Numbered from the stretch's first letter, positions 23,462 to 31,380 are shown. The stretch: 64,000 bases of DNA from Oligoflexia bacterium (GCA_015232355.1 JADFZW010000016.1:33419-97418), one strand, 5' to 3'. Notes: generated by a model from the letters alone, not told the origin. A program made the numbers and translations.

Positions 23462-23566
23462 TTCATGTATTTACATCAAGAATTCTATATAAAAAGTTAT
23501 GGGGTATTATAAAATTAATCATGCCCAATATCTTTTATAGCTGCCAAGGTATACTTTATTTTAAAA

Positions 23567-23600
23567 TCACACGGAATCGCACACGGAATCGCACGGAATC
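23567..23600. repeat. tandem micro-repeat (CACGGAATCG units, ~3 copies) abutting palindromic element copy a
   Basis: Reads TCACACGGAATCGCACACGGAATCGCACGGAATC directly in the sequence. Confidence 0.7.
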
Positions 23601-23671
23601 GTGCCACTTTCCATGTGGTAGCTCTAGTTAGTCGGAAATTAAAAAGAAATGCTACCATTCGGAGTGTGCAC
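23601..23671 (+). repeat. palindromic interspersed element, copy a (complete short form, 71 nt)
   Basis: GTGCCACTTTCCATGTGGTAGC-loop-GCTACCATTCGGAGTGTGCAC. The arms can pair over ~19 bp with a few mismatches or wobbles. Confidence 0.75.
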
Positions 23672-23803
23672 TCCTACTCCCTCCTAGAGTGCAAAAAAAC
23701 ATTCTCCTAAATAAAAAAATTATTCATCCGATATGATAATTTAAGAGGAGTAGTGTAACTCGTACTCTAGAACTTTATTAACATAGCTGTAAGGTTAAAT
23801 TAT

Positions 23804-26038
23804 ATGTCACTATTACATCGAGAGCATATAATAATTGCATATTTAATTACATATTTAGTTTTATTCATATCTATGGCCATAATTATGAACATAAACATAA
23901 AAATATCTATGGCGAGTGACAAGGAAGACCCTCCTGAAATTGAATGTAGCAATGATAGTTCAGTAAAACTTAATAAACATAATAAGTTTAATGATGAAAT
24001 AAAATCGTTAGTAGATAGATTTGATAGAAAATGGAATATAGACAAAGAGCTGCTAAAAAAAATTAAACAAAATCGCCCTAAGCGACCTTGGGAAGATGGT
24101 GATGTTGATACGATCTATCGCTTAAGTGAAAGTGATTTAGAAGTTCTCACAGGAAAAAACAAGGAGAAAAATACAAAGAAAAATAAAGAGAGAAATAAAG
24201 AGGAAGGAGATATTCCTTCACTATCTGTGATCATCTCTGCTCGCAATTTTTTGGAAAAACATCTTCAAGGCACATTCAAAATTGATCAAGGAAATAGAGT
24301 TGGTAAAATGACTAAGCTATATGCTTTTGGTGAAAATCATATCTCAACAGCGGAACTAAAATATAGAGGGAAAATTCTCTCTTATTTAATAAAAATTCAT
24401 CTACAAGCAGGTAATCTCGTAACCATTTCTGATGAATCAGTAGATGTACATGATGTACATAATGATAAAATTCATTTTAATAATGAAAATAAAAAAAATT
24501 TCTTATCTCGCTTGTACATAAATTTTGATGAAAAAGATACAGCTTTACTCTCTAATTTAGATTTAACCACCTGGGAAACAAAAAATGCTCAAAAAGAAAA
24601 AATAGAAGTATGTATGCTGCCGATTCAAGAAATTGATAAAAAAGCAAATATCATATATGCCAATCGAAATAAAATGAATAGAACAGATTACATTATGGAG
24701 TACAAGGCCCTTTGTGACAAAATTAAAAATTTTTCACTGTCACAGACCAAATTTTTAAATCGAATAAGAAATGATCGAAACCATACCCTTATAGAAAACG
24801 CCCAAAAACTTTTAGACAAAAATTCTAGCAATTTAAATATTTTAATAGCAGGATCGAATCATCTTGATGAAAATAATAAAGAAAGAAATCTCCTTTTGAA
24901 AAATGACGGAGTAAATATTTATTTACCGAAGAAAATTCCTAACAAAGCAAGATATGAGGAAGAAAAATCGGCCTCCGATTTAACGACACCTAATCTTGTC
25001 TCCAATTGGGATGTATATCATAGGGCCCTCATCACACTTGCAAAGATACTATCAACAATTCCCACAAGTGAGATGACAAGAAATTTTAATGAGAAAGATG
25101 ATTGTGGAATGCTTGATATATTTAAAAATATAAAGCTAGTATCAACATTAATGAAAGAAGGTTTTGATTTTAAAGAAGCAATTTTTGCAAATGGAATGAC
25201 TCCATTACATATTGCTGCTAAAAAGGGTTTCACAGATCTAGCTGAACTACTTTTGAATGATCCTAAAATTAATCCAAATATATTAAATAATATTGGAGTA
25301 TCTCCTTTAACTTATGCCGCTGCTTTTGGGAATAAAGACATTGTAAAGTTACTTATAAAACATCCAAAAATAGATTTTAAATTAGGAATGTACAATAGCA
25401 ATGGAAATTTACTATCCTCTTTAGATGTGGCCAAACAAAATGGGTATCCCGAAATTGTAAAGATAATTGAGGATTTTGTTACAAAAACAGATGATGATCT
25501 GGCAAATAACTTGATGTCGGCCGCAACAAGCGGTGATTTGAATAAAGTAAAAAAATTAATTAAAATAAATCCAAAAATAACTGAAGTAAAAAATAGCAAG
25601 GGTGAAACTGCATTGATGTTGGCGCTGAAAGATTTCAATTGGAATGTAGTTAAATATCTAGCTAAAATAAATCCAAAAACAATCGGAATGAAAAATAATA
25701 ATGGCGATAGCGCATTGATATTAGCTCAGAATAGTGTTGCATTTGCAAGAGGCAATTGGAAAGCTCCCTTTAATTGGAAAATAGTAAAATATTTGGCAGA
25801 ACTAAATCCTTCAGCAATTGAAGAAAAAAATAGAGATGGTGAAACTGTATTAGTATTGGCGGCACGAGGTGGATTTTTTGATATAGTAGAATATTTAGCT
25901 AAACTAAATCCGAAAGCAATTAATATTCAAAGTAATGATGGCAAAACGGTCTTTTCGTTGGCACAAAAGAAAGCTAGACTCGATGTAGTTGAACGCTTAA
26001 AGAAAATAAAATCCACATCATCAAATAGCGCGGAATAG
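23804..26038 (+). CDS. ankyrin-repeat protein with a large uncharacterised N-terminal region
   Basis: The C-terminal half holds at least 7 ANK repeats (GMTPLHIAAKKGFTDLAELLL, GVSPLTYAAAFGNKDIVKLLI, GETALMLALKDFNWNVVKYL, and others). The N-terminal ~430 aa have no motif I recognise apart from a hydrophobic leader. Confidence 0.85.
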   Translation: MSLLHREHIIIAYLITYLVLFISMAIIMNINIKISMASDKEDPPEIECSNDSSVKLNKHNKFNDEIKSLVDRFDRKWNIDKELLKKIKQNRPKRPWEDGDVDTIYRLSESDLEVLTGKNKEKNTKKNKERNKEEGDIPSLSVIISARNFLEKHLQGTFKIDQGNRVGKMTKLYAFGENHISTAELKYRGKILSYLIKIHLQAGNLVTISDESVDVHDVHNDKIHFNNENKKNFLSRLYINFDEKDTALLSNLDLTTWETKNAQKEKIEVCMLPIQEIDKKANIIYANRNKMNRTDYIMEYKALCDKIKNFSLSQTKFLNRIRNDRNHTLIENAQKLLDKNSSNLNILIAGSNHLDENNKERNLLLKNDGVNIYLPKKIPNKARYEEEKSASDLTTPNLVSNWDVYHRALITLAKILSTIPTSEMTRNFNEKDDCGMLDIFKNIKLVSTLMKEGFDFKEAIFANGMTPLHIAAKKGFTDLAELLLNDPKINPNILNNIGVSPLTYAAAFGNKDIVKLLIKHPKIDFKLGMYNSNGNLLSSLDVAKQNGYPEIVKIIEDFVTKTDDDLANNLMSAATSGDLNKVKKLIKINPKITEVKNSKGETALMLALKDFNWNVVKYLAKINPKTIGMKNNNGDSALILAQNSVAFARGNWKAPFNWKIVKYLAELNPSAIEEKNRDGETVLVLAARGGFFDIVEYLAKLNPKAINIQSNDGKTVFSLAQKKARLDVVERLKKIKSTSSNSAE

Positions 26039-26093
26039 TGTCACTTTCCATTTGGTAGCTCTAGTGAGTCACAAACATAAAGTTAATCTTAAC
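26038..26093 (+). repeat. palindromic element, copy b (left arm plus 34 nt shared with the long copy c; right arm absent)
   Basis: GTGTCACTTTCCATTTGGTAGCTCTAGTGAGTCACAAACATAAAGTTAATCTTAAC. Its first G is the last base of the TAG stop of the ankyrin gene. Confidence 0.7.
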
Positions 26094-26224
26094 ATTCACC
26101 ATAGGTGTTAATAAATTCTATCATGCCTTAGAAAAAGATTTGGTAATAAAATTAAGCAAAGGACTTCCCTCGCTTTCTCACTTTAACAAGAGATAAACTA
26201 GATCTCATTTCGATTTGAAGTAGT
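26094..26224 (+). pseudogene. 5'-truncated, prematurely stopped duplicate of the small membrane-protein gene at 27644-27820
   Basis: About 130 nt align by eye to 27691-27822 with scattered substitutions. The translation ..FTIGVNKFYHALEKDLVIKLSKGLPSLSHFNKR ends at TAA. Confidence 0.6.
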
Positions 26225-26341
26225 GATTCCTTTTATAATAATCTTCAATTTTTAATTGAATCAGTGTTTATTTTGCAGTCCAATAGCGAATCCCTACTAA
26301 GCAATGAACATGTTTAGCAATAATTTGCTTAAATTTTAATT

Positions 26342-26362
26342 ACAGTGTACAATGTACACTGT
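26342..26362. promoter_or_regulatory. perfect 10+1+10 palindrome ACAGTGTACA-A-TGTACACTGT upstream of brnT (candidate operator)
   Basis: Lies 18 nt upstream of the brnT ATG. RHH antitoxins typically bind palindromic operators. No binding data are available. Confidence 0.45.
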
Positions 26363-26379
26363 GTGCAAAGGAATTATAT

Positions 26380-26682
26380 ATGAGCAAATTCGTATGGAGT
26401 AAAGATAAAGATGAATTACTTAAAAAAACTCGAAATATTTCATTTGAAAATGTCGTTTCTGCTATAGCAGAAGAAAATTTGCTTTCCATCGAGGCAAACA
26501 GAAGCAAAAATCATGAGGGTCAAAAAATTTTAATTGTACTAATAAATGATTATCCTTACGTTATACCGTTTGATGAGCTTGATAACGGAGATATTATTTT
26601 AAGAACAATATATCCTTCAAGAAAGGAAAAAAAGAGAATAAATAATGAAAACGAAAAGAAAAAAAGAAATAAAGCTAGATAA
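26380..26682 (+). CDS. brnT: BrnT-like (DUF497) type II toxin
   Basis: FVWSKDKDELLKKTRNISFENVVSAI ... IILRTIYPSRKEKK follows the BrnT pattern (F-x-W-D-x-x-K ... isFe ... R-I-I-S-x-R-K). Confidence 0.65.
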   Translation: MSKFVWSKDKDELLKKTRNISFENVVSAIAEENLLSIEANRSKNHEGQKILIVLINDYPYVIPFDELDNGDIILRTIYPSRKEKKRINNENEKKKRNKAR

Positions 26683-26968
26683 GTATGAAAAACAAATTGA
26701 AAAAGATCGTCTAGCAGGATCTTTTAAAAATATTAATGAAGAAAATTCTGTTATTAAAAAATTGCAGAGTATGGCCAAAGAACAAATTAAAGAGAAAAGA
26801 ATTAATTTGAGAATGAACGCTGACGATTTGAAATATTTTGAAATGGAAGCTAAAAGAATGGGAATGGCCTATCAAACATTAATTGGCTCTGTACTTCATC
26901 GATATATTCATAATCAACTAATTGATGTTAAGGAAATAAATAAAGTTACAAGAAAAAAGGTCAGTTAA
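26645..26968 (+). CDS. brnA: BrnA/CopG-like ribbon-helix-helix antitoxin
   Basis: KRINLRMNADDLKYFEMEAKRMGMAYQTLIGSVLHRYIH matches the BrnA-type antitoxin C-terminal region. The ORF overlaps brnT. Confidence 0.7.
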   Translation: MKTKRKKEIKLDKYEKQIEKDRLAGSFKNINEENSVIKKLQSMAKEQIKEKRINLRMNADDLKYFEMEAKRMGMAYQTLIGSVLHRYIHNQLIDVKEINKVTRKKVS

Positions 26969-27009
26969 TCAACAACATTTAAAATGCTTATTTAAACAAA
27001 CGGTAAATC

Positions 27010-27034
27010 ATGAGTAATTGCAACCATGATAAAC
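27010..27034 (+). pseudogene. 25-nt fragment duplicating the start of the zinc-ribbon antitoxin-like gene (28333-28357)
   Basis: ATGAGTAATTGCAACCATGATAAAC versus ATGAATAATTGCAACCATGATAAAC gives 24/25 identity. Similarity stops where the GAATCG array begins. Confidence 0.6.
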
Positions 27035-27035
27035 G

Positions 27036-27078
27036 TGCGAATCGCGAATCGAATCGCGAATCGCGCGAATCGCGAATC
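27036..27078. repeat. tandem micro-repeat array (GCGAATC / GAATCGC units, ~6 copies) abutting element copy c
   Basis: Reads GTGCGAATCGCGAATCGAATCGCGAATCGCGCGAATCGCGAATC directly in the sequence. Confidence 0.7.
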
Positions 27079-27421
27079 GTGCCACTTTCCATTGGGTAGC
27101 TCTATTGAGTCACAAACACAACGTTAATATTAACAACAGATGAAAAAGCAGACTAATTCAAAGTGATGAGAATTTAATTATCTTCACTGAGTTTTTATTT
27201 TTTACAATATTTGCTCTCAAAGAGCTGAGATAGATATATTTATAAATCTTATGAAAATTGCTTCTATCTTTAATTAGATCGTTAATTGTATCTAAAGCAA
27301 TTTTTCATACTTTATTTAATGGAAGATAAAACTATTCTCGATTATTTGATTGAGAGGTTATAAGGTTATGTAATATGACTTTCGCAATATCCTTAGCCAG
27401 GTAGCTACCATTCGGAGTGTG
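27079..27421 (+). repeat. palindromic element, copy c (long form: arms separated by ~300 nt of non-coding AT-rich DNA)
   Basis: Left arm GTGCCACTTTCCATTGGGTAGC at 27079-27100. Right arm GCTACCATTCGGAGTGTG at 27404-27421. No ORF lies between them. Confidence 0.6.
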
Positions 27422-27438
27422 TCTTCAATTCCTATTAG

Positions 27439-27460
27439 TGGCAGAAAGAGCAGGAATCGA
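27439..27460 (-). repeat. att-like direct repeat: 22-nt copy of the 3' end of the tRNA-Sec-like gene
   Basis: TGGCAGAAAGAGCAGGAATCGA is identical to 31231-31252 in the same orientation. Confidence 0.8.
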
Positions 27461-27573
27461 TTCTGCCCTCGACAAATCTTTATAATATTAACAAATTAGA
27501 ATGATTTCAAAAACTTGCCTTTTGACGGCATTCTTCTTTTTTCATCATTTTTCACGTTAGTTCATATAGTCAA

Positions 27574-27605
27574 ATGTGCAAAACGTGTGCAAAACATGTG
27601 CAAAG
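27574..27605. promoter_or_regulatory. three tandem 11-bp repeats (A/G)TGTGCAAAAC upstream of the small ORF
   Basis: Reads ATGTGCAAAAC GTGTGCAAAAC ATGTGCAAAG, ending 38 nt before the ATG at 27644. Operator- or iteron-like; function unknown. Confidence 0.35.
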
Positions 27606-27643
27606 ATAAGTAAACCTATCAACAATTAACAAAGGAATATTTA

Positions 27644-27820
27644 ATGAAATCAATTATTGATATTTTAGTCTCCTTAGGTCTCTTAGTAACATTCACTGTA
27701 GGTGTGAATAAATTTTATCATGCCTTAGAAAAAGAATTGGTAATAAAATTAAGTAAAGGACTTCCCTCGCTTTCTCACTTTAACAAAAGATTAACCAGAT
27801 CTCATTTAGATTTGAAATAG
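27644..27820 (+). CDS. 58-aa small membrane protein (not in the ORF track; function unknown)
   Basis: ATG follows AAAGGAA at 7-nt spacing. Translation MKSIIDILVSLGLLVTFTVGVNKFYHALEKELVIKLSKGLPSLSHFNKRLTRSHLDLK has one TM helix and a basic tail. A decayed copy lies at 26094-26224. Confidence 0.45.
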   Translation: MKSIIDILVSLGLLVTFTVGVNKFYHALEKELVIKLSKGLPSLSHFNKRLTRSHLDLK

Positions 27821-27851
27821 TCGTCCTAAAACAATTATAGTAACTATTTGA

Positions 27852-27879
27852 CTATTTTACCGCAAATGCGGTAAAATAG
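27852..27879. terminator. 13-bp-stem inverted repeat CTATTTTACCGCA-AA-TGCGGTAAAATAG followed by CTTTT (terminator of the small ORF and/or operator of the downstream pair)
   Basis: Perfect inverted repeat read in the sequence. It sits between the small ORF and the toxin-like gene. Confidence 0.4.
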
Positions 27880-27930
27880 CTTTTAGTATTATCGCAACTA
27901 TGGTAAGATACAAAACAATTGAGGTTCCAG

Positions 27931-28320
27931 ATGGAAGGGAAATCAGATTTGCATAGGTTGTTAGAAGATAGAACAGTTGATTTGGCCCTTAAGATTAAAA
28001 GAGCTGCGGCAAATGATCTTGAATATTGGGATGGAGAAAAAAATCCTCCAAACTTACCAAGGAAGAGTTTTGAAATATTTCTTGATTATCTAGAAGAAGG
28101 AGATGTGCAGAACTATAGCATTGACTCAAGAACAAGTAGAAAAGGAAAGTACGGCAAAACAGGATTACCATGGATATTTAAATTTGAGCATACCACTCAA
28201 ATCTTGAGTGTTAAAAAAAGATATTTTTGCAAAGGATTTTTTTTTGAAAAATCCGATTTAAGAGGACTCGAGATACAATCTTTTAGAGAAGTCCAGATGA
28301 CCTTAAAAATAATAGATTAA
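27931..28320 (+). CDS. hypothetical protein, possible MqsR-like toxin
   Basis: ATG at 27931 follows GAGG. The C-terminal pattern ...WIFKFEH...YFCKGFFFEK...GLEIQSFRE recalls the MqsR ending (Y-x-K ... L-I-V-S-F-K-E). The toxin-first order matches mqsRA. Similarity is weak. Confidence 0.4.
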   Translation: MEGKSDLHRLLEDRTVDLALKIKRAAANDLEYWDGEKNPPNLPRKSFEIFLDYLEEGDVQNYSIDSRTSRKGKYGKTGLPWIFKFEHTTQILSVKKRYFCKGFFFEKSDLRGLEIQSFREVQMTLKIID

Positions 28321-28332
28321 GTGAGGCAAAGT

Positions 28333-28917
28333 ATGAATAATTGCAACCATGATAAACATTCAAAGAAAGAAATAGTAAAAGAAGTTTTAAAATGCAAGTT
28401 TAAATTCAAAACAATGGTTTGCAATGAATGTGGCCATTATTTGTGGGATAAAGAAGTAGAACAAAAGTTTAACCTCTGGCTAGAAAAACTCTATAAAAAT
28501 AAGCGTGAAAAATTTCAAGTTCAAATTCCTTTATCCGAGAACCTTCGAAAATGTCTCAATAAATTGAGACGCAATTATCCAAGCGTAACAGATACTGATT
28601 TAGTGAGGGCCATTATTATCACTTACCTAGACCATTTATCTACAAATAAAAAACTAATGAAAATGATTAATGAAAACATTACAGAGGAAATAATAAACTC
28701 TTTCGCTGAACCACCATTTTCTTCTATGAAAGTACAATTTAGACCTAAATACACCATCAAATATCTTGAATTAGCAAACATGATTGGATCTACTCAAGCA
28801 AAAGTAATGCAAGATGCGGTCAAGAAATTAATGGCCTTTTTCGTGGCCACGGATAATGAATTAAAAGATTTCTGGAATACTGAAATAAAAAAATACATTG
28901 ATATGCTTGTGGCCTAG
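28333..28917 (+). CDS. zinc-ribbon protein, possible MqsA-like antitoxin with an RHH-like middle domain
   Basis: N-terminal C-x-H...C-x-x-C (NNCNHD...VCNECGHYLWDKEVEQKF) resembles the YgiT/MqsA zinc domain. IPLSENLRKCLNKL...LVRAIIITYLDHL looks like a ribbon-helix-helix. Confidence 0.4.
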   Translation: MNNCNHDKHSKKEIVKEVLKCKFKFKTMVCNECGHYLWDKEVEQKFNLWLEKLYKNKREKFQVQIPLSENLRKCLNKLRRNYPSVTDTDLVRAIIITYLDHLSTNKKLMKMINENITEEIINSFAEPPFSSMKVQFRPKYTIKYLELANMIGSTQAKVMQDAVKKLMAFFVATDNELKDFWNTEIKKYIDMLVA

Positions 28918-28935
28918 ATTTTTAAGTAACTAGAG

Positions 28936-29904
28936 TTATAATGAATTTTTCTGACAGTTATCTTGCAATAAATATCTTTTGTTATCAGACTGAGCGTTCA
29001 CATTTGATGTAATTACTATGGAACAATCAGATCTATTTTTCTTATCAATATTAATATAACTAAATAACATGCTATCATCATCGGTGTTCACCTCTAGTTT
29101 TAACCAGTCACGATTAATTTTACCTGTATAAACCCACTTGTTGGTAGCTTTGGTCTCTAATTCACGATAGTACTTATCATAATATTTACCTTCTCTAGGA
29201 CCTACTACTGAGGGTGAAACGAAGAGTGGAATACCATCAAAGTCAACGAAAGTGGCAACATGTTCGTGACCAACCAAAATTGCATCTATTTTTGTTTTGA
29301 ATTTCTTTAATATAGGTACTAATTTTAAAAAAAATGATTTTTTTTCTTTCCATGTATGCTTTGGCCCTACGTCAGCAGGAGGGTGATGAAAAGCAATTAA
29401 AATCATTTTTTGATTCGCGCTCTCTAATTGATCTTGTATAAATTTCATCTGCTCTTCTATGCGTGTTTTATTTTCTTCATCCGAGTTTAGCACGATGATC
29501 AGTAGATCATTTTCGGGAACTATACTATAAAAATCTCCTGGCATTTTAAAATAATCCATCTCCCTCTTATATCCTTGATTATGATTTCCTACTGCTACTG
29601 CCATAAAATTAAATTCATCTATCCAGCTATTCCAAATGGCCGGATAAGTAGCTGATGAAGTAGCAATATTGGGAGCATTATCACCAACCATAATTAGATT
29701 TTTGATATCTGATTCATGTAGTGAGCTTTGTAAAAATGTTAAATCGGTTGCGTATTGACCAACATCACCGATAATTCCAAATGTATAAACTTTTGAAAAA
29801 GCATTGTCTGCAGTTGCAAGTGATGCAAAAAATATTAACAATGTAAGACCTATAAAATTTGCAATCAAAATTCTACTAACTTTCTTTGTTTTCTGTACTT
29901 TCAT
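28936..29904 (-). CDS. secreted calcineurin-like metallophosphoesterase
   Basis: Has a signal peptide and the motifs GDVGQ, VGDN, GNHN, FHHPP, GHEH in canonical order. Confidence 0.85.
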   Translation of the reverse strand: MKVQKTKKVSRILIANFIGLTLLIFFASLATADNAFSKVYTFGIIGDVGQYATDLTFLQSSLHESDIKNLIMVGDNAPNIATSSATYPAIWNSWIDEFNFMAVAVGNHNQGYKREMDYFKMPGDFYSIVPENDLLIIVLNSDEENKTRIEEQMKFIQDQLESANQKMILIAFHHPPADVGPKHTWKEKKSFFLKLVPILKKFKTKIDAILVGHEHVATFVDFDGIPLFVSPSVVGPREGKYYDKYYRELETKATNKWVYTGKINRDWLKLEVNTDDDSMLFSYINIDKKNRSDCSIVITSNVNAQSDNKRYLLQDNCQKNSL

Positions 29905-30199
29905 AATTTTTTCCTCTCTGTGTTTGTAAGATTGATATTATAGAAAACATACAGAGAAGATACCTTGAAAATTTTAAAATAAACCAGTCAAGCTACGGTT
30001 AATTAATTGTTAGAAATATTAAGATATGATTAATGATATTTATATTAATCTGATCTTAACAAAACGTTGATACAACTTTGATCTGATCTTGATTTGCGAA
30101 ATAACTACTTTCCTTTCACAATAACATCAGTGGTACTTTTATATATAAAAGCTATTTCATTGTGATTTAATTATTATTTAATTTTTCAAGGAGGAATTT

Positions 30200-31198
30200 A
30201 TGATTAATTCATTTAAATTTTACTTTCATGTTTTAAAAAATTGTCCACGATTACTTTTAATAATTATTTCTTTCTTACTCATTCTTTGTAATCACGAAAT
30301 TAATGCCAGAGAAATTAATTGCAATGATCTATCAATCCTAGAAGATGAGACGCGATTAAATGAATGTGCTGTTATTGAGGCCAACAATCATTCAAAAAAT
30401 TTTGATAACTATATTAATTATAGTCAAAGTATTGTCAAATATAAAGGACCTACTCACCAATCATTGGTAGAGATAGCGCTGAAATCTTTTTTCTTATCAA
30501 AAAATAGAATTAATAATATTATTGCTGCCACAATTGTACCAGATGCCCATCCTAACATTATAGCATTATTAAAACATCCATGGACTCATTTGTATATGCT
30601 TAACAAGAGAGGAAATTGGAGTTGGGGTGGGGCCGATAAATATTTTCAAGATAATTTAATTTGTCACAACCAAAATTCAAACTACGAAAATAATAGTTGT
30701 TCTCGTGTTCGAGGTTATTCTGGATTATCTGCAGAATATTATTATCTTCAAAATAATCAAAAAGCAGGTGATTGGTACTTAGGATACGCTGTTCATTTTG
30801 TAACTGATGTATCTACTGTTATTCACTCATCACTACCATCACTAACTCGTCTTGATATATTATTTAAACATACATCCTTTGAACAATGGATTAAAAATAA
30901 TTTTTCAAAAGGACACAATTTCTTAAGCAAAATTCAAAATGAAAAAGAAATTTATCAAATCAATGACCCTGCAGAAGATTTAAAAGATATCGCTGAAAGA
31001 TCAAGTTATTGGACAAGTGATGTCGGTTATAATGTTTGGAATAGTTATGCAGAAAATGGATATCCTGTTAGCGAAGGTACAGGTGATCAGGAACTGGTTG
31101 AGAATACAATAATAATGCTCAAAAATACTCTTAGTTATATTAAAGGAACCATCCAATTTACATTAAATAAGTACCAACAATTGGAATCAAAATACTAA
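30200..31198 (+). CDS. secreted zinc-dependent phospholipase C / P1-nuclease superfamily-like protein
   Basis: Has a signal peptide. THQSLVEIAL, VPDAHPN, HPWTHLY, and GDWYLGYAVHFVTDVSTVIH resemble the His/Asp zinc ligand pattern of that superfamily. Confidence 0.5.
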   Translation: MINSFKFYFHVLKNCPRLLLIIISFLLILCNHEINAREINCNDLSILEDETRLNECAVIEANNHSKNFDNYINYSQSIVKYKGPTHQSLVEIALKSFFLSKNRINNIIAATIVPDAHPNIIALLKHPWTHLYMLNKRGNWSWGGADKYFQDNLICHNQNSNYENNSCSRVRGYSGLSAEYYYLQNNQKAGDWYLGYAVHFVTDVSTVIHSSLPSLTRLDILFKHTSFEQWIKNNFSKGHNFLSKIQNEKEIYQINDPAEDLKDIAERSSYWTSDVGYNVWNSYAENGYPVSEGTGDQELVENTIIMLKNTLSYIKGTIQFTLNKYQQLESKY

Positions 31199-31230
31199 GA
31201 AGAAAATATTAAAATAAGTTGGTATGAGGT

Positions 31231-31325
31231 TGGCAGAAAGAGCAGGAATCGAACCTACCACAGACAGTTTTATCTACCTGCTACTGACTTTGAAGGCCAG
31301 CTGAGACACCAGTCCCCTTCTTTCC
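31231..31325 (-). tRNA. selC: tRNA-Sec-like gene (anticodon UCA, long variable arm, encoded CCA)
   Basis: RNA sequence: GGAAAGAAGGGGACUGGUGUCUCAGCUGGCCUUCAAAGUCAGUAGCAGGUAGAUAAAACUGUCUGUGGUAGGUUCGAUUCCUGCUCUUUCUGCCA. Features: 4-nt D-loop, anticodon loop CUUCAAA, 7-bp variable-arm stem, T-loop UUCGAUU. By eye I get a 7/5 rather than the bacterial 8/5 acceptor/T stack, with G1-U72, so this needs a covariance-model check. Confidence 0.65.
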
Positions 31326-31380
31326 ATTTATGATTTTATCAAAATTTACTTACGGAAAAAATACTGATAGCATTAAACAA

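Follow-up and report, generated by a model that had tools for sequence, protein, structure and literature searches.

Genes and repeats at the selC locus

The stretch of DNA analysed here (the window) comprises 64 kb of an Oligoflexia bacterium (G000:C7:33419-97418); the source genome, G000, is a draft of 5.63 Mb in 96 contigs. The subject of this report is a short islet of accessory genes that ends at selC, the gene of the selenocysteine tRNA (tRNA-Sec), and that is bordered on its far side by a copy of the 3' end of the same gene (Table 1). A single tRNA was predicted by ARAGORN in the whole window, a tRNA-SeC with anticodon TCA at 31231-31325 on the minus strand, and the Rfam model RF01852 (tRNA-Sec) matched 31234-31326(-) end to end with 53.3 bits (E 6e-8; gathering score 47). 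The terminal CCA is encoded in the gene, as TGG at 31231-31233. In the alignment of the orthologues from G000, its only congener G001 and G074, a member of another genus, the cloverleaf is of the Sec type, with a variable arm of 8 bp and a T stem of 5 bp, and five compensatory pairs have changed on both sides across the three genomes. The partner genes were identified elsewhere in G000, namely selA (TIGR00474, 468 bits) and selB (TIGR00475, 258 bits) on contig C96 and selD (TIGR00476, 420 bits) on C23. An earlier reading of the window, made by a model from the DNA letters alone and referred to below as the sequence-only reading, had taken this minus-strand gene with its UCA anticodon for a tRNA-Sec and had proposed looking for selA, selB and selD in the genome. 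Both ARAGORN and the covariance model, the latter above its gathering score, assign the Sec identity, and all three genes are present: selC is a genuine tRNA-Sec gene in a genome with complete Sec machinery.

The last 22 nt of the tRNA gene (TGGCAGAAAGAGCAGGAATCGA) are found exactly twice in the window, in the same orientation and 3.77 kb apart. None of 100 shuffles of the window matched this 22-mer, even with three mismatches allowed, and a search of the complete 5.63-Mb genome that tolerated up to two mismatches gave no further copy. Beyond the 22-mer, a weak similarity continues (36 nt at 83%). The identical and co-oriented repeat as well as the partial similarity past it had already been described in the sequence-only reading, and both hold, as does its remark that the right arm of a palindromic repeat (copy c) ends close to the distal copy: it stops at 27421, 17 nt short of the repeat. 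The locus thus combines the 3' end of a tRNA gene with a direct repeat of that end (22/22), and the identity block has the extent, from the T-loop to the 3' end, by which class II tRNA integration is recognised. At selC, tRNA-Ser(GCT) and tRNA-Ala, three of the four tRNAs used by the element family described below, the identity stops after the ...TCGA of the T-loop.

Between the two copies lie a non-coding arm, a gene for a 58-aa membrane protein, two adjacent open reading frames (ORF133 and ORF198) and the genes of a metallophosphoesterase and of a phospholipase-C-like protein. No match to PF00589 was obtained in the islet, and in a tblastn search of the islet region with all 19 integrases of G000 the best E-value was 0.036, so the absence of an integrase that had been noted before stands, without a detectable remnant. 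The phospholipase-C-like gene ends 32 nt from the tRNA, which leaves too little space for an attL arm or an integrase, and these 32 nt hold no arm repeats. Among the usual features of genomic islands, the islet has the tRNA 3' end, the flanking repeat and a variable content with an empty site in a relative; a recombinase and a deviant base composition are absent.

Table 1. Features of the selC islet and of the adjoining distal patch (positions in the window)
Feature	Position	Strand	Basis or remark
selC, tRNA-Sec (UCA), intact, encoded CCA	31231..31325	-	ARAGORN, RF01852, compensatory pairs
Putative attL core: last 22 nt of tRNA-Sec, T-loop to CCA	31231..31252	-	exact repeat; identity block ends in T-loop TCGA, like sibling sites
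Putative attR core: displaced 22-nt copy of tRNA-Sec 3' end	27439..27460	-	exact repeat; orthologous 19/22 copy in G001
Family-typical attR-side arm, TTAACAAATTAGAATGAT ... TTTTTTCATCATTTTTC ... TGTGCAAA repeats	27461..27625	+	copies at five other G000 sites
Three TGTGCAAA repeats, 11-nt spacing, putative arm-type integrase-binding sites	27575..27604	+	inferred
58-aa single-transmembrane membrane-protein gene, hallmark at the attR end of the family	27644..27820	+	~10 paralogues in G000
ORF133, first gene of mobile-element-linked pair	27919..28320	+	P0007 homologue; MqsR-like C-terminal motif by eye only
ORF198, partner gene, N-terminal Cys-rich ribbon-like segment	28321..28917	+	28% identity to 196-aa gene after P0007
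Calcineurin-like metallophosphoesterase, hydrophobic N-terminus, cargo	28936..29904	-	Pfam PF00149 (Metallophos), E 6e-8
Distant zinc-dependent phospholipase-C-family protein (Zn_dep_PLPC-like), hydrophobic N-terminus, cargo	30200..31198	+	PF00882
Distal accessory patch at rearrangement junction	23462..27438		no G001 homologue except 49-nt match
Ankyrin-repeat protein in distal patch	23804-26038		
Truncated 58-aa-ORF paralogue in distal patch	26090-26224		92% to 27687-27821
brnT/brnA-like genes in distal patch	26380-26968		
Remnant of ORF198 start, 33 nt, in distal patch	27002-27034		
Palindromic repeat copies a, b, c in distal patch	23574-23670, 26024-26097, 27058-27421		

Sibling elements in the source genome

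Five other sites in G000 carry copies of the ~115-165 bp that adjoin the distal repeat on its inner side (C8:54027-54190, C4:70237-70073, C71:3000-2830, C35:534-384 and, in part, C14:~94092). All five of these arm copies are directly preceded by an exact 3'-end copy of another tRNA gene of the genome, namely tRNA-Ser(GGA) (19 nt), tRNA-Ser(GCT) (20 nt) and tRNA-Ala(GGC) (22, 22 and 16 nt), with the same geometry relative to the tRNA gene as at selC, and a 58-aa-ORF paralogue comes after every arm copy. Such paralogues were found on C14, C20, C71, C8, C63, C4, C18 and C35 and once more in the window at 26068-26220; the homologue search for this ORF returned only the copies of G000 itself and none in other genomes, and no match was obtained in Pfam, PHROG or PADLOC. 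When all 37 tRNAs were scanned for distal copies of their 3' ends, these were detected for Ala(GGC), Ser(GCT), Sec, Ser(GGA), with two copies, and Met.

Aligned to each other, the arms consist of conserved blocks together with a pair or triplet of (A)TGTGCAA repeats. In the element at tRNA-Ala (C1) the TGTGCAA repeat pair is found on both arms; the next element of the tRNA-Ala array carries the motif ATGTTCGA, with its tRNA-side arm on C71 and its distal arm on C14, and an unrelated element at tRNA-Met has GTAGGAAT on both arms. Since the repeats occur on both arms and change with the integrase, they look like arm-type integrase-binding sites, and the TGTGCAAA repeats of the selC islet would be sites of this kind.

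Tyrosine integrases of ~440 aa adjoin tRNA-Ala (C1:47662-49002), a tRNA-Ala fragment (C71:3201-4517), which indicates a tandem array, tRNA-Ser(GGA) (C8:85643-86965, followed by a helix-turn-helix (HTH) replication initiator and a DnaB helicase) and tRNA-Asp (C56:238-1551). These four sibling integrases are 36-68% identical in pairwise comparisons and form one subfamily, which a search of 41 genomes found in 10 (G000 and nine relatives), all within one bacterial family. The selC copy has neither a tRNA-side arm nor an integrase.

Further observations were made on the elements of this genome. At tRNA-Ser(GCT), a 155-nt direct repeat of 97% identity (C4:57429-57583 and 70243-70394; L057), composed of the last 22 nt of the tRNA gene and 133 nt of its downstream flank, bounds 12.5 kb of chemotaxis-type genes (CheX, a histidine kinase, a methyl-accepting chemotaxis protein and a response regulator). 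No integrase is encoded in these 12.5 kb, and at their end lie the family arm, which shares 96% identity with the arm of the integrase-bearing C8 element, and a paralogue of the 58-aa ORF. Tandem arrays are seen at tRNA-Ser(GGA), with two distal 3'-end copies (C8:38556 and 54002; tRNA at 87049-87138), and at tRNA-Ala(GGC) (C1:49201-49276), whose three 3'-end fragments lie on separate contigs (C71, C35 and C14), one of them directly before an integrase; the assembly is broken at the element repeats of both tRNAs. The tRNA-Met element, ~38 kb long (C20:226-38100), encodes a 458-aa integrase of a different subfamily and has, besides its two-armed motif, a ~45-nt repeat of the tRNA end and a distal 58-aa-ORF paralogue. 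Most of the 237 members of the bacterial family have genomes of 2-4 Mb. The 5.63 Mb of G000, its 19 genes for tyrosine recombinases and the distal 3'-end copies of five or more of its tRNA genes together point to expansion by integrative elements. In metagenome contigs, an exact-pattern scan for the tRNA-Sec 3' half gave no matches, and neither did a scan of viral contigs for the most conserved 20-mer of the arm; 11 metagenome matches to this 20-mer were discarded as chance matches, the similarity extending over at most 36 nt.

Empty and occupied sites in relatives

A tRNA-Sec-type 3' end occurs in only 4 of the 237 genomes of the family, in one of them just as a fragment. In G074, selC is followed after 173 nt by selA and then by selB, and no repeat is found; this gene order is the empty site. 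In the congener G001, the order is selA, 9 nt (counted from the selA start), a copy of the repeat that agrees at 19 of 22 positions, a 37-nt arm remnant, a 158-aa ORF unrelated to the cargo of the G000 islet, selC, and the right flank common to both genomes. The arm remnant carries the selC-specific variant GATTTC(A/G)AAAACTT, and the flanks of the islet are orthologous between the two genomes, at 80% and 63% aa identity. Repeat and selC-specific arm remnant together argue that one and the same element lineage has occupied selC in the two species.

Either the insertion predates the split of G000 and G001 or the selC site has been used repeatedly. Given that the 22-mer is perfect in G000 and has three changes in G001, with flanks that are 63-80% identical, a later turnover in G000 by the same element lineage is suggested. 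Over the 7.8 kb made up of the islet and the distal patch, nucleotide matches to G001 are limited to the 37-nt arm remnant and a single hit of 49 nt in the truncated 58-aa-ORF paralogue. A search of the genome contigs for loci related to the right-flank protein found none.

Origin of the islet

Integration into the 3' end of a tRNA gene regenerates the tRNA and leaves the displaced 3' fragment behind as a direct repeat. With a probability of about 0.8, we read the interval 27439-31252 as what is left, fixed and decayed, of an element with a tyrosine integrase; it would have entered selC in the T-loop manner and then lost its integrase end. The attP site of this element would have carried the tRNA-Sec segment from the T-loop to the CCA, so that recombination between attP and selC would have regenerated an intact tRNA gene (attL), and the displaced 22 nt would have stayed behind as the direct repeat at the far end (attR). 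The proximal part at selC, with the integrase and the attL arm, would have been lost later, and the islet would no longer be able to excise by itself. Occupation of the site probably dates from before, or from about the time of, the divergence from the congener. After the insertion, a rearrangement, most simply a single inversion, would have broken the DNA at most ~15 nt outside attR, moved selA-selB next to tRNA-Asn and brought rdgB and a second accessory patch next to the islet. A decayed island at selC had also been the proposal of the sequence-only reading, and it is now backed by the sibling arms and integrases, by the empty site of G074 and by the occupied site of G001. The presence of the same arm and 58-aa gene beside copies of the 3' ends of three other tRNAs supports it as well, as do the near-complete lack of nucleotide homology to the 7.8-kb patch in G001 and the position of ORF133/ORF198 relatives after excisionase and integrase genes in metagenome contigs.

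Several points weigh against this interpretation. No integrase or remnant of one lies within 23-32 kb of the window, and an origin by integration is thus deduced from the sibling copies, not shown for the selC copy itself. The phosphoesterase and phospholipase-C-like genes were not found in the sibling elements and may be later arrivals. The composition of the islet (GC 0.25-0.34) is not distinct from that of the genome (0.322). The tRNA-side arm of the C8 element is without the TGTGCAA motif, and the arm-site reading is therefore not uniform across the family. Finally, the comparison at species level relies on one congener genome, G001, an 84%-complete draft, and the genomes are metagenome-type drafts.

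An islet without an integrase of its own could also be still mobile, as a hitchhiker resembling a cis-mobilizable element (CIME) that is moved in trans by a sibling integrase, that of the tRNA-Ala element being a candidate. This would agree with a core that has stayed at 22/22 though the copy of the congener stands at 19/22, with the intact attR arm, whose three TGTGCAAA repeats have the same motif as both C1 arms, and with the existence of a second integrase-less member at tRNA-Ser(GCT), which has an arm 96% identical to that of C8. The attL side, however, consists of 32 nt without arm repeats; the assembly contains no integrase at a selC-type core and the genome no second selC-type attP copy; the sibling cores differ from selC at many positions; and no conjugation or packaging partner was identified. 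We consider continued mobility unlikely. The sequence-only reading had left the choice between a decayed and a trans-mobilised island: decay is retained, and trans-mobilisation becomes the less likely fate with the tRNA-side arm gone. The tyrosine integrase directed at selC, for which it had suggested a search, was not found, as none in the assembly could be tied to the selC core. A wider scheme is similarly doubtful, in which the lineage-restricted family would keep a common arm and swap a core of 19-22 nt among at least four tRNA genes including selC, the islets at selC and tRNA-Ser(GCT) would be moved in trans by the ~440-aa integrases, and the att site would be the breakpoint that parted selC from selA-selB.

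Far less probable is a local duplication of part of selC, which would make the repeat a pseudo-tRNA fragment left over from it, with unrelated genes accumulating between the copies. Local duplication does occur here, since 26090-26224 and 27687-27821 agree at 92%, and the repeat at tRNA-Ser(GCT) is itself a 155-nt duplication that includes the downstream flank; but at selC the T-loop and the CCA end mark the two limits of the similarity, and the adjoining arm is common to the 3'-end copies of three other tRNAs, which a duplication of selC does not explain. A chance match or an artefact of draft assembly is the most remote of the explanations weighed: no shuffle (0/100) matched the 22-mer, and the same repeat-plus-arm geometry is found in the independently assembled congener G001, even though G000 is a 96-contig draft with an estimated contamination of 3.2% and its assembly is broken by repeated elements elsewhere (C71, C35, C14).

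Relation to known integrative elements

The general features of tRNA-linked islands, with repeats of 16-20 bp, have been described (PMC2704930), as have T-loop (class II) integration and the retargeting of integration by changes of the attP core (PMC1762012). With the selC islands of Enterobacteriaceae (PMC2704930, PMC7545054), the present islet shares the location at the tRNA-Sec 3' end, a regenerated gene, a repeat of ~20 nt at the far border and cargo that is accessory and strain-specific. It differs from them in its size of only 3.8 kb, without integrase, tRNA-side arm or compositional signature, and in its host, an uncultured member of the Oligoflexia whose sibling integrases have no demonstrated relation to the enterobacterial selC integrases. 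As for class II integrases such as that of mycobacteriophage Ms6 (PMC1762012), attP/attB identity runs from the T-loop to the 3' end, over 19-22 nt here and 26 nt in Ms6, and related elements use different tRNA genes according to the core they carry. In contrast to Ms6, the sibling elements have the appearance of integrase-replication-helicase islands, not of complete phages.

CIMEs, defined by intact attL and attR sites and the loss of integration and transfer genes (PMC6323972), and other integrase-less derivatives (PMC5704250) resemble the islet in that these genes are gone while the core repeats persist. Measured by its att sites, the selC islet has identical cores and an attR arm, whereas its attL side is the 32-nt stretch without arm repeats, and no helper element lies in tandem at selC. 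There is also a likeness to tandem accretion arrays, as tRNA-Ser(GGA) has two distal repeats, tRNA-Ala(GGC) has three 3'-end fragments with an integrase after one of them, and a second, truncated 58-aa-ORF module lies distal to the selC islet. At selC, unlike in such arrays, just two copies of the core are left, and a tandem array may once have stood there.

Taken by itself, the selC islet is an ordinary and known kind of genomic island; its annotation is routine and challenges no current understanding. A modest wider interest lies in a previously undescribed family of tRNA-targeting elements, with a ~165-bp arm, a 58-aa membrane-protein gene, a ~440-aa integrase and at least four tRNA genes used, and in its multiplication within an unusually large genome (5.6 Mb versus 2-4 Mb for most relatives). 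It also lies in the physical parting of selC from selA-selB in the G000 lineage and in an orphan gene pair, ORF133/ORF198, that is linked to integrase modules in two unrelated contexts.

Cargo genes

The sole database relative of ORF133 is P0007 (42-44% identity), which is present in two metagenome contigs. Around P0007, the gene order is an HTH_17 excisionase-like gene, a 403-aa integrase and genes for proteins of 57, 126 and 196 aa, and the 196-aa protein encoded after P0007 aligns over its full length with ORF198 (28% identity, E 8e-29). Judging by these alignments and the gene order, ORF133 and ORF198 constitute a conserved two-gene module that travels with integrases. On both metagenome contigs (L070:124-2976 and L071:454-3306), the genes form a compact operon, HTH_17-403-aa integrase-57-aa-ORF133-like-ORF198-like-92-aa, and no tRNA is found on either contig.

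The sequence-only reading had labelled this pair as toxin-antitoxin-like. ORF133 had no match in Pfam, NCBIfam or PADLOC, ORF198 reached only 17 bits on TIGR03830, whose cut-off is 61.8, and PHROGs and PADLOC returned nothing for ORF133, ORF198 or the 158-aa ORF of G001. The AlphaFold models, each based on a two-sequence alignment, had a predicted local distance difference test score (pLDDT) of 56 for ORF133, for which a Foldseek search of the PDB gave no match better than E 0.08, and of 45 for ORF198, the latter being unusable. An MqsR/MqsA-type toxin-antitoxin pair is not recognised by the family models, and the low-confidence structure model of ORF133 gave no fold match. From the gene content given in the sequence-only reading, the metallophosphoesterase and the zinc-phospholipase-C-like protein are retained, and the toxin-antitoxin label is unconfirmed.

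The metallophosphoesterase has paralogues on C16 and C20 (55-61% aa identity). For the phospholipase-C-like protein, the PF00882 score is marginal (28.6 bits versus a cut-off of 26.8), a weak sequence match in the PDB covers 65 residues over the metal-site motif (E 0.024), and paralogues lie on C20, C22, C2 and C16. The chromosomal paralogues of the two proteins elsewhere in the genome are 49-61% identical to them. Both may be secreted, as suggested solely by their visible hydrophobic N-termini.

Separation of selC from selA-selB and the distal patch

The rdgB and selA junctions of G000 and G001 were compared with each other (heading of the comparison: REARRANGEMENT). In G001, rdgB adjoins tRNA-Asn and the dnaX-mglA-dksA block. 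On C96 of G000, 5.6 kb of accessory genes separate this block and tRNA-Asn from selA-selB. Thus, the arrangement tRNA-Asn|rdgB and selA|repeat of G001 corresponds to tRNA-Asn|...|selA and rdgB|...|repeat in G000. As both adjacencies are swapped reciprocally, which is the signature of one inversion, the parting of selA/selB from selC in G000 would most simply be due to a single inversion. Homology between G000 and G001 ends at most ~15 nt outside the repeat, and no inverted repeats common to both junctions (C96:91.8-97.4 kb; window 23.5-27.4 kb) were found. The selC-selA junction of G001 represents the ancestral state because G074 has selC-selA too; the rdgB junction of this outgroup was considered as well and is uninformative, rdgB being followed there by tRNA-Pro. 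The sequence-only reading had suggested comparing relatives for an unoccupied junction of rdgB and selC. This expectation has to be given up, since selA was the ancestral neighbour and the rdgB-selC adjacency is derived; an unoccupied rdgB-selC junction is therefore not to be expected, and a search for one cannot succeed. The rdgB match of G001 (C358:16473-17174; L055:10474-11175) spans one in-frame TAA, which could be due to a pseudogene, a sequencing error or an alignment overrun.

The insert between tRNA-Asn and selA (C96:91798-97385; L023:1799-7386) encodes a 1011-aa orphan, a RecJ-like protein and a fragment of an SNF2 helicase, a 139-aa C-terminal piece similar to DrmD of DISARM, and looks like a defence-island remnant at the other junction of the rearrangement. 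The distal patch next to the islet (Table 1) could derive from a local duplication or be an older, second copy of the element's distal module. Its palindromic repeats belong to a family (GTGCCACTTTCCAT..GGTAGC / GCTACCATTCGGAGTGTG) that is also found at G000:C10:79483-81236, with ~23 right-arm copies in the whole genome when up to two mismatches are tolerated; in the window, GAATCG-type micro-arrays precede the copies.

Two observations concern the Sec machinery itself. The SelB protein of G000 has 865 aa (C96:98866-101463; L023:8867-11464), compared with 630 aa in G074, and at residues ~711-843 it contains a C-terminal TlpA/ResA-like thioredoxin-fold domain, so that it may be a fusion of SelB with a thiol-oxidoreductase. 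The selD gene of G074 (C57:45746-46657; L066) has one in-frame TGA, which is present in neither G000 nor G001 selD and suggests a Sec-containing SelD.

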